Shown one piece after another: positions 57,501-60,500 of a stretch of 64,000 nt of DNA. Made by a program: the position numbers. The DNA is from Escherichia coli (GTDB lineage: Bacteria; Pseudomonadota; Gammaproteobacteria; Enterobacterales; Enterobacteriaceae), in the NCBI RefSeq assembly GCF_003334315.1, contig NZ_QOWR01000010.1. One strand, given 5' to 3'. The first letter of the stretch is position 1, and every line of letters starts with the position of its first letter.

Positions 57501-60500
57501 GCTTCACGACTCTTCTCCAGAGGGGCAGAATAACCACACCGGAGTGTGGTTATGGTTAATCCCCTTCATATTTCAAGCCACAGATGCGATGACTCGAATT
57601 ATTTTGGGGATACATACTTTATTACTGGGTACTGGTGGTTGTGGTTGTGGTGGTCCCGGTATTAGAACCATCACCGCCACCGGTTGCCGCGAGCGCGACA
57701 CCCACCGCCGAGCTTACGGTGCTGACGCTGGTCGCGGAGGAACTCCCCGCCGAAACCGACGTTGCTGCCGACCCTGCCGCTTCGCCCACCTGTACAGGTG
57801 CAGCCCACGCAGAAGTCGCCGCAAGCGCAGATATGGCAAAAATGCCATACAGAACTTTTTTCATAACAATTTCCCTTCATTGAATGAATGGAGATTTACC
57901 CAAAAACATTTCGGGCGGGATCGAGTATACACAACTAAAGCATGCGAATTACGGCGCGGGGAATTAGCGATGGTGTTTTAGGATAATTGGAATGAATATC
58001 AAATATAAGTTTCAACTTATATTTAAATAACAATAAAAATCATAAACTTAAAATAAAAACAAAAGTAATTAATCTGCGTATTTTCCGAAATAAACAACGA
58101 TTAAAAATCTATTTTAGGATTAACCTCACGGTATGATTTCCGTTAAATCACAGACAAGGGGATTTATCTGATAAAAAAATGCCGACATAACGTCGGCATT
58201 GTTATTAAGGTTATTTAATCAATCGTGCTATGTATTAATTGCCGAATACGATGTACATATCGGCATCGACCTGTAGGCCTGATAAGACGCGACCGCGTCG
58301 CATCAGGCATCGGTTGCCGGATGCGGCGTGAACGCCTTATCCGGCCTACATAGCGGCATCAGGCATGAACGATGATTAACCGCGCCACGCTTTATAGCGG
58401 TTAATCAGACCATTGGTCGAGCTATCGTGGCTGCTGATTTCTTTATCATCTTTCAGCTCTGGCAGAATACGGTTTGCCAGTTGTTTACCCAGCTCCACGC
58501 CCCACTGGTCGAAGGTGAAGATGTTCAGGATCACGCCCTGAGTAAAGATTTTGTGCTCATACAGCGCAATCAACGCCCCCAGGCTGAACGGAGTGATTTC
58601 GCGCAGCAGGATGGAGTTGGTCGGGCGGTTACCTTCGAACACTTTGAACGGCACCACGTAGTCAAGCGTTGCCGGATCTTTACCCTGATCGCGATATTCC
58701 TGCTCAACCACTTCACGGGATTTACCAAACGCCAGCGCTTCGGTCTGGGCGAAGAAGTTAGACAGCAGTTTCTGGTGGTGATCAGAGAGCGGGTTATGGG
58801 TGATAGCCGGGGCGATGAAATCGCACGGTACCATTTTGGTTCCCTGGTGGATCAGCTGGTAGAACGCGTGCTGACCGTTAGTGCCTGGTTCACCCCAGAT
58901 AATCGGGCCAGTCTGGTAATCCACAACGTTACCGTTACGGTCAACATACTTACCGTTGGACTCCATATTGCCCTGCTGGAAGTACGCCGCGAAACGGTGC
59001 ATATACTGGTCATACGGCAGAATCGCTTCAGTTTCCGCACCAAAGAAATTGTTGTACCAGATGCCAATCAGCGCCAGCAGTACAGGCAGGTTTTTCTCGG
59101 CAGGCGTGGTGGAGAAATGCTTGTCCATCGCGTGTGCGCCAGAAAGCAGTTCAACGAAGTTATCAAAGCCGATGGAGAGAACAATCGACAGGCCAATCGC
59201 TGACCACAAAGAGTAACGGCCGCCAACCCAGTCCCAGAACTCGAACATGTTGGCAGTATCAATACCAAACTCGCCAACGGCTTTGGCATTGGTGGAGAGC
59301 GCAGCGAAGTGTTTCGCAACGTGTTTTTCATCACCTGCCGCTTTCAGGAACCAGTCACGCGCGCTATGGGCGTTGGTCATGGTTTCCTGAGTGGTGAAGG
59401 TTTTAGATGCTACCAGGAACAGCGTGGTTTCCGGGTTTACTTTTTTCAGCACTTCAGCGATGTGAGTCCCATCGACGTTAGAAACAAAGTGCATGTTCAG
59501 GTGGTTTTTGTACGGACGCAGTGCTTCGGTCACCATGTATGGGCCGAGGTCAGAACCGCCGATCCCGATGTTCACTACGTCAGTGATTGCTTTGCCGGTA
59601 TAACCTTTCCACTCACCGGAAATAATCGCTTCTGAGAAGGTTTTCATCTTCTCCAGCACCGCGTTGACTTCCGGCATTACGTCTTTGCCATCAACCAAAA
59701 TCGGGGTATTGCTACGGTTACGCAGCGCTACGTGCAGCACGGCGCGGTTTTCAGTGCGGTTGATCTTCTCGCCAGAGAACATCGACTTAATCGCGCCCGC
59801 CAGATCGCACTCTTTCGCCAGATCCTGTAATTTCGCCAGCGTCTCTTCGGTGATGCGGTTTTTGGAGTAATCCACCAGCATCTGATCGTCGAATGTTGCG
59901 GAGAACTTAGAAAAACGATCGCCGTCTTTAGCAAAAAGATCGGCGATCGTAACGTCTTTCATTTCATCGAAGTGTTTCTGTAGTGCCTGCCAGGCAGCGG
60001 TCTGCGTTGGATTGATGTTTTTCATTAGCAATACTCTTCTGATTTTGAGAATTGTGACTTTGGAAGATTGTAGCGCCAGTCACAGAAAAATGTGATGGTT
60101 TTAGTGCCGTTAGCGTAATGTTGAGTGTAAACCCTTAGCGCAGTGAAGCATTTATTAGCTGAACTACTGACCGCCAGGAGTGGATGAAAAATCCGCATGA
60201 CCCCGTCGTTGACAACCGCCCCGCTCACCCTTTATTTATAAATGTACTACCTGCGCTAGCGCAGGCCAGAAGAGGCGCGTTGCCCAAGTAACGGTGTTGG
60301 AGGAGCCAGTCCTGTGATAACACCTGAGGGGGTGCATCGCCGAGGTGATTGAACGGCTGGCCACGTTCATCATCGGCTACAGGGGCTGAATCCCCTGGGT
60401 TGTCACCAGAAGCGTTCGCAGTCGGGCGTTTCGCAAGTGGTGGAGCACTTCTGGGTGAAAATAGTAGCGAAGTATCGCTCTGCGCCCACCCGTCTTCCGC

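Follow-up and report, generated by a model that had tools for sequence, protein, structure and literature searches.

Within a 64,000-nucleotide stretch of Escherichia coli DNA (contig NZ_QOWR01000010.1 of assembly GCF_003334315.1; hereafter the window), we analyzed yjbE, the first gene of the yjbEFGH operon, and its small, Thr-rich product. Our preferred reading, to which we assign a probability of about 0.5, is that YjbE is a non-enzymatic, exported cargo or partner of the YjbF/YjbG/YjbH module that is made in excess and acts via its C-terminal module. This reading draws on our observations of the gene, its export signal, composition, selection, synteny, and a downstream hairpin, and on published work for the Rcs control, the link to exopolysaccharide, the mRNA excess, and the folds of the Gfc proteins. 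yjbE is among the most strongly Rcs-induced enterobacterial genes, yet neither YjbE nor GfcA, its counterpart in the group 4 capsule operon, has an assigned function. With a constrained Thr tail, a recurring micro-protein architecture, and a dedicated hairpin, a 'low-complexity protein' becomes experimentally addressable. The gene, the operon, and the substrate idea were already in the literature; what we add is the constraint on the tail, the shared architecture, the orphan copies of the gene, and the invariant hairpin.

The yjbE coding sequence occupies positions 57622..57864 on the minus strand and comprises 80 codons and a TAA stop, as established from the list of open reading frames (ORFs), the translation, Pfam, and RefSeq. 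Residues 1-79 of the product aligned with all 79 positions of the PF11106 model (E = 5.5e-33), and RefSeq names the same ORF 'exopolysaccharide production protein YjbE'. yjbE is a real, already annotated gene, and the initial annotation, which had called an 80-residue ORF with a signal peptide at this position, described it correctly. A 701-bp stretch around the gene was 100% identical in E. coli BE2-5, and the yjbE stretch was carried by 5421 of 5426 complete E. coli genomes. Among 40 E. coli genomes sampled across the identity range, the gene was 243 bp long in 38, 242 bp in one, and partially matched in one; no repeat-length polymorphism of the Thr run was found in this sample. A scan of YjbE, YjbF, YjbG, and YjbH against NCBIfam yielded no match at E ≤ 0.01, and the naming of the four proteins rests on Pfam, the Protein Data Bank (PDB), and RefSeq. 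We found no literature assigning a function to YjbE.

Residues 1-21 (57802..57864, minus strand) were recognized by inspection as a signal peptide: MKK, a hydrophobic core, and S-A-W-A, followed by AP. The N-terminus has the n-h-c layout of Sec signals, with A-W-A before the predicted cleavage site and no lipobox Cys. A21 and P23 were nearly invariant across the family alignment. YjbE thus has the sequence hallmarks of a Sec-exported protein and is predicted to be a substrate of signal peptidase I. The mature protein of 59 residues is 76% Ser, Thr, Ala, and Gly, or 88% when Val is included, which bears out its description as consisting almost entirely of the first four. Nine residue types (C, F, H, I, K, M, R, W, and Y) are absent from it, β-branched residues make up 34% (13 Thr and 7 Val of 59), and there is a single Pro and no aromatic residue. 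Just 8 of 28,617 stop-free 59-residue windows reached the Ser + Thr + Ala + Gly content of YjbE. The run of seven Thr residues (Thr7; 57634-57654, minus strand) and its Val7 mirror on the opposite strand were the only homopolymer runs of at least 6 residues in a six-frame translation of the 64-kb window; shuffled windows (n = 50) had a mean of 0.02 runs of at least 7 residues.

The same composition accounts for several further ORFs. Reading frames of 69-145 residues overlap yjbE at 57635-57883 and 57544-57981 on the plus strand and at 57671-57880 on the minus strand because the codon composition is GC-rich and stop-poor. Such alternative-frame and opposite-strand ORFs were rejected as mirror products of biased codons that lack support. 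Some frameshifted overlapping ORFs are listed as 'proteins' in public databases (e.g., P0035 and P0047).

To characterize selection on YjbE, we compared the proportions of nonsynonymous and synonymous differences (pN/pS) in 51 gap-free orthologues of 80 codons, for which pS was about 0.41 throughout. The ratio was 0.33 in the signal peptide, 0.18 in the mature N-terminal part, and 0.022 in residues 53-80 (57625..57708, minus strand), which we designate the C-terminal module. For residues 68-80, comprising the Thr run and its flanks, the value was 0.031. Each position of Thr7 used two to four codons among these orthologues, and the residue was always Thr. The sequence of residues 53-80 was identical in many genera, including exactly seven Thr. 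The initial annotation had viewed the tail as merely low in complexity. This view does not hold: given the pN/pS of 0.022 and the fixed length of the run, the tail is the most constrained part of YjbE and, at the level of sequence, reads as a functional motif and not as drifting filler.

The C-terminal module overlaps a segment of small and hydrophobic residues (residues 44-61; 57682..57735, minus strand) that is homologous to a transmembrane-like Gly/Ala/Val/Leu segment in relatives. Its mean Kyte-Doolittle hydropathy over 19 residues was 1.24 in the YjbE of the window versus 1.9-2.2 in relatives and 2.16 in GfcA, and its summed ΔG on the Hessa scale was about +5.2 kcal/mol versus 0.3-2.3 in most relatives. 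The polar version of the segment was common to all Escherichia, Salmonella, Citrobacter, and Enterobacter orthologues. An AlphaFold2 model of the monomer, based on a 50-sequence alignment, had a mean predicted local distance difference test (pLDDT) score of 56, with a low-confidence helix at residues 44-61 and coil elsewhere, including the tail.

The yjbE and yjbF genes are separated by 114 nt, and the fold of this spacer had a z-score of −5.0 relative to shuffled controls. The second hairpin of the spacer, ATAACCACAC-UCCG-GUGUGGUUAU (57530..57553, minus strand), is a terminator or attenuator candidate on the basis of the fold and its conservation. It conforms to the pattern ATAACCACAC-N4-GTGTGGTTAT, with a 10-bp stem and a tetraloop. 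All 72 yjb-type loci, which represent about 25 genera, had exact stems, mostly 14-19 nt past the yjbE stop codon, and the loop was UUCG in 58 of these and otherwise variable. As a control, the neighboring pgi terminator drifted and covaried across the same genomes. The pattern occurred once in the window versus 0 expected. In an unbiased scan of metagenomes, it was found at 120 loci, at 93 of which a YjbE-family ORF ended just upstream; the remaining matches were mostly at contig ends or beside frameshifted yjbE. The tail of the E. coli hairpin, UUCUGCCC, is a weak U tract that a terminator consensus scan did not call, and a U tract follows the hairpin in Pantoea, Sodalis, and Biostraticola.

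The invariant and non-covarying stems may indicate recognition by a specific factor. According to the statement in PMC8208086 that cites Ferrieres 2007, yjbE mRNA is more abundant than yjbFGH mRNA. Together with the conservation of the hairpin, this excess supports a role of the structure as a putative attenuator or stabilizer that raises YjbE over YjbF, YjbG, and YjbH.

The family defined by PF11106 is narrow. An exhaustive HMMER search of 1.84 billion proteins (representatives at 50% identity) returned 29 matches, and the sequences ranged over the Enterobacteriaceae and Erwiniaceae; this search was used in place of a word-indexed one, which had retrieved mostly frameshifted or truncated fragments. 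The full-length matches and GfcA shared a layout of a signal peptide ending in AxA followed by AP, a variable stretch of small residues, and a Gly/Ala/Val/Leu segment of approximately 20 residues. In PF11106, the C-terminal layout is GGGDGSNTG, the Thr run, and an S/T-x-R/Q end. Many relatives end in R or K, and Gly-zipper-like GxxxG/A stretches are present among them.

yjbE is the first gene of yjbEFGH and adjoins pgi, an order conserved in at least 70 species. We evaluated the synteny in Enterobacterales using 80 loci fetched via YjbH or GfcD, of which two were cut off upstream, leaving 78. A gene resembling yjbE or gfcA (E/A-like) lay directly upstream of yjbF or gfcB in 76 of the 78, and these included genes that HMMER had missed in Sodalis, Biostraticola, Rahnella, and a locus from a metagenome-assembled genome. 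In Chimaeribacter (L084:3802-4605 and L088), pgi is followed by yjbF-G-H after an 800-nt spacer containing no YjbE-like ORF and no hairpin.

Beyond this order, tblastn of YjbH against plasmids identified about 180 alphaproteobacterial homologues of roughly 29-40% identity. A same-strand gene with the YjbE architecture was present in four of seven alphaproteobacterial loci, those of Phaeobacter gallaeciensis, P. inhibens, Thioclava, and Indioceanicola (L094:8077-8283, L095:9197-9454, L096:812-1123, and L097:8920-9129). The encoded proteins, exemplified by MNKFFAAFALATLAATTTASA followed by QDEGTPTLLGGTGLEQGTLIAGGVAGAVVLGVILNDDDESSSTTTTN, have a signal peptide, a Gly/Ala/Val segment, an acidic turn, and a Thr/Ser-rich C-terminus; no sequence homology to YjbE was detectable in them. 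A detector for the architecture, applied to both strands of 1.27 Mb, matched these four genes, the known E/A genes of the hydrophobic type, and orphan PF11106 genes, and nothing else. The alphaproteobacterial clusters have neighboring genes for YjbH and YjbF and either lack GfcC or have an OPX protein in its place, so that what recurs is H, F, and the small protein. The occurrence of an E-like gene beside F and H homologues in two proteobacterial classes is one basis for regarding YjbE as their cargo or partner.

The three partners are encoded downstream on the minus strand. yjbF (56869..57507) specifies a lipoprotein with the lipobox LQAC that matched PDB entry 2IN5, YmcC/GfcB, at 2.7e-43 and whose homologues carry PF11102. 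yjbG (56135..56872) encodes a periplasmic GfcC-family protein, as judged from the RefSeq annotation and a match of 2e-54 to PDB entry 3P42, the crystal structure of GfcC according to reference 10 of PMC11494523. yjbH (54039..56135) encodes a two-barrel outer-membrane protein (PF06082, E = 1.3e-270) that is 65% identical to GfcD. yjbF and yjbG overlap by 4 nt, and yjbG and yjbH by 1 nt. These matches corroborate the description of yjbE as the head of a four-gene operon for a lipoprotein, a periplasmic protein, and a large outer-membrane β-barrel.

In the literature, GfcB has a LolA-like fold (PMC8592465), and both GfcB and GfcC bind GfcD (PMC8592465, PMC9603273). The two-barrel architecture of YjbH is described in PMC8346858 and PMC11494523. 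Specifically, the N-terminal barrel of YjbH/GfcD has been assigned to the FapF family of amyloid transporters and the C-terminal barrel has been likened to the PgaA porin (Solan 2021, Saidi 2022; PMC8346858, PMC9603273). GfcD/YjbH is predicted to comprise the FapF-family barrel, a middle domain, and a C-terminal barrel of 13 strands with a lateral aperture (PMC11494523, PMC9603273, PMC8346858). A profile search with YjbH and GfcD found no solved relative among PDB sequences. Foldseek comparison of our mediocre YjbH model with the PDB returned generic outer-membrane barrels at template-modeling scores of 0.1-0.2, led by LptD (the top match), AlgE, and BcsC; FapF was not recovered. The initial annotation had likened the downstream proteins to Wza-like or curli-like machinery. 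The published barrel assignments and the sequence match of YjbG to 3P42 favor that likeness, whereas our own Foldseek search of YjbH, which yielded only generic barrels, does not.

In the literature, yjbEFGH and the gfcABCD genes of the group 4 capsule operon are described as paralogues. GfcA (YmcD) heads gfcABCDE-etp-etk as YjbE heads its own operon, and the genes that follow are paralogous: GfcB and YjbF are 39% identical, GfcC and YjbG 42%, and GfcD and YjbH 65%. In GfcA, as in YjbE, a signal peptide (A-F-A followed by AP) precedes a region rich in Thr, Gly, and Ala; a hydrophobic Gly/Ala/Val segment and a D/S/G turn come next, and the end is rich in Thr (...NTSTTTSTTR). The gfcA gene likewise precedes a terminator-like hairpin, in this case a different one lying between gfcA and gfcB. 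Unlike YjbE, GfcA does not match PF11106 and has no significant similarity to YjbE (BLASTP E = 65); its hydrophobic segment is longer and more hydrophobic, it has an extra Thr-rich N-terminal region, and its Thr run is shorter and interrupted. The gfc operon also continues into paralogues of Wza, Wzb, and Wzc, which yjbEFGH lacks. As far as sequences allow a comparison, the pair has kept its architecture and lost its similarity, while F/B, G/C, and H/D have stayed similar. GfcA is described in the literature as Thr-rich and natively unstructured, and RefSeq names it 'threonine-rich inner membrane protein GfcA'.

Two other types of system invite comparison. The FapC/FapF system of Pseudomonas and CsgA/CsgG resemble the Yjb system, insofar as the latter is known from its genes, in combining a small, Sec-exported, low-structure substrate with an outer-membrane channel of its own and with accessory proteins that are periplasmic or lipoproteins. 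However, YjbE shows no amyloid repeat units by eye and is not known to form fibers, and the link of the Yjb system is to exopolysaccharide and not to fimbriae. YjbH also differs from FapF and CsgG in its second, polysaccharide-porin-like barrel. The likeness to LptD/LptE and LolA/LolB comes from the LolA-like fold of GfcB (PMC8592465) and from the lateral gate of the GfcD C-terminal barrel, as in LptD (PMC11494523), which was also the top Foldseek match of the YjbH model, at a low score. There is no sequence relationship to the Lpt and Lol proteins, and published proposals have a lipid-anchored polysaccharide as the cargo and not a peptide.

According to Ferrieres 2007, as cited in later work, yjbEFGH is induced by the Rcs phosphorelay via RcsA-RcsB and is implicated in an exopolysaccharide distinct from colanic acid. 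yjbE is used as a reporter of Rcs and envelope stress. In the RcsB-regulon section of an RNA-seq study of a prc mutant, yjbE was the most induced gene, at 12.4-fold, and yjbFGH did not appear in the portion of that table covered here (PMC6941253). In ribosome profiling, the translation efficiency of yjbE was altered under acid stress (PMC10746267).

An alignment of 14 genera delimited the promoter and 5' leader of yjbE (57865..57987, minus strand), in which the promoter elements are putative. It contained a conserved block, ATTATCCTAAAAC (57975-57987), that is a candidate Rcs site only; an invariant TTGTGTATACTCGA with a −10-like TATACT (57921-57934); and an invariant 31-nt leader with the Shine-Dalgarno sequence GAAGGG and a TTCATT-C-AATGAA inverted repeat (57865-57895). 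The −35 region is poor. A scan with the sigma-70 consensus found no promoter match for yjbE on the minus strand, and the sequence upstream of the gene contained no RcsAB box at up to 3 mismatches. The leader also contains a covarying hairpin, CCCGAAA...TTTGGG. The unusual conservation of the leader suggests that post-transcriptional control may operate besides Rcs activation.

In the preferred reading, YjbE would be a Sec-exported, largely unstructured polypeptide that serves as the cargo or stoichiometric-excess partner of the machine and not as one of its parts. That YjbE is a cargo, that it contacts YjbF and YjbH, and where it finally resides are our inferences. Activation of Rcs would fire the yjbE promoter. 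Most transcripts would then end or be stabilized at the invariant hairpin, and a minority would read through into the translationally coupled yjbF-G-H, so that YjbE would be produced in excess over the machinery. Such a layout would resemble that of fimbrial operons, in which major-subunit genes come before those for assembly. In the operons of papA and fimA, the gene of the abundant subunit comes first and an intercistronic hairpin lowers expression of the downstream assembly genes. The analogy is one of operon design only, as YjbE is not a pilin.

After cleavage of the signal peptide, the 59-residue chain would act via its hydrophobic segment, the GGGDGSN turn, the seven Thr, and the S-T-Q/R end, with the Thr run serving as a recognition or strand-forming element. 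The LolA/LolB-like lipoprotein YjbF would cover the segment before transfer of the chain to YjbH, for which a lateral gate is predicted in the C-terminal barrel. YjbE would finally be associated with the outer membrane or the cell surface, or be anchored there, and may help to retain or organize the Yjb-dependent exopolysaccharide. The proposal of a hydrophobic cargo is based on the LolA-like GfcB, the binding of GfcB and GfcC to GfcD, and the lateral aperture of the GfcD C-terminal barrel, and that of a non-enzymatic role on PF11106 being the sole domain match and on the low-confidence, mostly coil AlphaFold2 model. The suggestion in the initial annotation that YjbE could be a substrate rather than an enzyme gains indirect support from the missing catalytic domain, the unstructured model, the synteny with F and H, and the E-F hairpin. 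Since a substrate role had been published as speculation for GfcA (PMC8592465), that interpretation is a rediscovery.

In a broader version of the preferred reading, which we consider rather unlikely in its full extent, YjbE/GfcA-type micro-proteins would be an ancient, cross-class cargo of YjbF-YjbH, recognizable by a signal peptide, a Gly/Ala/Val hydrophobic segment, a turn that is acidic or made of Asn/Ser, and a C-terminal Thr/Ser run. They would be carried in a LolA/LolB-like manner, released through the lateral gate, and serve as the anchor of exopolysaccharides such as the group 4 capsule, possibly with a glycan on the Thr tail, while the hairpin would determine how much cargo is made per machine.

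A number of findings weigh against YjbE being the cargo or partner of this module. We found no direct evidence on its location, partners, or modification, and the segment that YjbF is proposed to shield has only weak hydrophobicity in YjbE of the E. coli type (Kyte-Doolittle 1.24). A YjbH-(GGGGS)8-YjbE fusion was built with 17 paired orthologues to probe strand complementation or threading by the YjbE tail and modeled using AlphaFold2. YjbH contained strands throughout, with a mean pLDDT of 61.5 overall; the YjbE part, at pLDDT 22-31, had no secondary structure and did not dock in this model of an artificial chain, which was based on a shallow paired alignment of 18 sequences and provided no contact map. 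Chimaeribacter was the only member of the Enterobacterales among the 78 usable loci without an E-like gene near F-G-H, and three of the seven alphaproteobacterial loci (L098-L100) had no YjbE-like gene near YjbH. Finally, divergent orphan PF11106 genes in Kosakonia, Erwinia, and metagenome contigs are monocistronic and retain the transmembrane-like segment that has been lost in the protein of the window. No F, G, or H gene was found within 6 kb of them in 7 distinct contexts (a further contig was too short), and a YjbE-type protein is thus evidently useful apart from an adjacent machine. The F-G-H locus lies elsewhere in Kosakonia species and in at least one, metagenome-assembled, Erwinia genome, and it is therefore possible that the orphans act in trans.

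The main alternative, though an unlikely one in our estimation, is that the second hydrophobic segment, once the signal peptide is cleaved, serves as a stop-transfer helix and makes YjbE bitopic in the inner membrane, with its N-terminus out and its C-terminus in. With its Thr tail in the cytoplasm, the protein would act at the inner membrane, for example on polymerization or export proteins. The segment is indeed transmembrane-like in most relatives (Kyte-Doolittle 1.9-2.2; ΔG 0.3-2.3 kcal/mol), the RefSeq name of GfcA places that protein in the inner membrane, AlphaFold2 predicts the low-confidence helix at residues 44-61, and many relatives end in R or K. In Escherichia, Salmonella, Citrobacter, and Enterobacter, however, the segment is too polar (1.24; ΔG about +5) although it lies in the best-conserved region, which makes an essential anchoring function improbable. 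Using as criteria approximately 19 residues at a Kyte-Doolittle value of at least 1.6 and a positive flank, the YjbE of the window did not qualify as a bitopic inner-membrane protein; the orphan copies and GfcA passed on hydrophobicity and failed on the charged flank. The flank after the segment (GGGDGSN in the YjbE of the window; also NDDDESSS) is acidic or neutral and devoid of a positive cluster, contrary to the positive-inside rule. The known partners, moreover, are all periplasmic or outer-membrane proteins.

Of the remaining alternatives, two are compatible with a cargo role, and these rank only loosely against each other and against shielding by YjbF with release through the lateral gate. 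Less probable than an inner-membrane anchor is that the tail is O-glycosylated or an attachment point for polysaccharide, making YjbE and GfcA the protein anchors of the Yjb exopolysaccharide and of the group 4 capsule. With its Thr run, the tail offers a plausible site for O-glycosylation and is under strong selection, an Acyl_transf_3 gene lies near two orphan copies, and such a role has been proposed for GfcA (PMC8592465). Yet exactly seven Thr with a GGGDGSNTG flank better suit a structural or recognition motif than a loose acceptor, and no gene for a glycosyltransferase or O-oligosaccharyltransferase was found in or adjoining any examined yjbEFGH locus. E. coli K-12 is also not known to possess a general periplasmic system for protein O-glycosylation, which counts against this possibility. 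For the glycosylation or polymer priming suggested in the initial annotation, we thus found no evidence. Of still lower probability is an amyloid-like subunit that would pass in unfolded form through the N-terminal, FapF-like barrel of YjbH and whose β-rich aggregates would stabilize or tether the polysaccharide leaving via the C-terminal barrel. The FapF-family barrel, for which secretion of an amyloidogenic polypeptide has been proposed (PMC9603273, PMC8346858), the β-branched content of 34% with a single Pro and no aromatics, the Gly-zipper-like stretches of the relatives, and an excess expression typical of a subunit are consistent with this. Against it, YjbE had by eye no imperfect, N/Q-rich repeats of the CsgA/FapC type, the AlphaFold2 models of it contained no β structure, Foldseek did not recover FapF, and the fusion model, a weak test, showed no threading. 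Nor did we find a Congo-red or fiber phenotype attributed to yjbE in the literature. Finally, it is very improbable that yjbE is mainly cis-regulatory, with translation of its Thr codons tuning read-through into yjbFGH in the manner of the thr operon attenuator. The seven consecutive Thr codons do end 3 codons before the stop, the conserved hairpin starts 14-19 nt past it, and the translation efficiency of yjbE shifts under acid stress (PMC10746267). But YjbE has a full signal peptide and 28 residues under selection at the amino-acid level, beyond the Thr codons, and the orphan genes keep the tail without a downstream operon and, except for L007, without the hairpin; a leader-peptide role is unlikely for these reasons. 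The fold of the spacer, too, offered no evident alternative antiterminator pairing.

From its composition, YjbE was also considered as a microcin-like toxin. The status of yjbE as a core gene with a fixed position, the Sec signal peptide of its product, and the lack of accompanying immunity or export genes led us to reject this idea. A link of YjbE-like genes to phage 'morons' was similarly dropped: it rested on two Erwinia contexts, tblastn found no match in 50,697 phage records, and there is no YjbE PHROG. Neither YjbE nor the orphan copies matched a PHROG. GfcA (L002:9440-9745) matched phrog_26619 over its full length (E = 8.5e-56), which is probably a prophage-boundary artefact of the PHROG library. 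Among the orphan copies, those of the Kosakonia type adjoin a divergently transcribed gene for a GerE-family regulator (L003-L012, gene mostly at ~6001-6255). Phage tail genes neighbor two of the Erwinia copies, one of which (L011) is also beside an Acyl_transf_3 gene.

The spacer between yjbE and yjbF contains an extra, Escherichia-specific hairpin, identified from the spacer fold (57559..57611, minus strand), that is missing from most other genera, whose spacers are 60-70 nt long. A sub-threshold match to isrH (24.9 bits versus 45) fell within the same region. In EcN_Sk, this hairpin carries a 71-nt ERIC-like insert (L093:420-590); Citrobacter species have other palindromic inserts in the spacer, and a published laboratory mutant has IS1 inserted there. 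The spacer seems to be a hot spot for insertions. On the other side of yjbE, the pgi-yjbE spacer contains a match to Rfam STnc430 on the plus strand (58061-58210; 77.7 bits, gathering threshold 47) that runs antisense to pgi as well as to yjbE, with its end at the bidirectional pgi terminator (58178-58200). Just past pgi, at 58276-58346, is a REP-type match to naRNA4 (79.5 bits).

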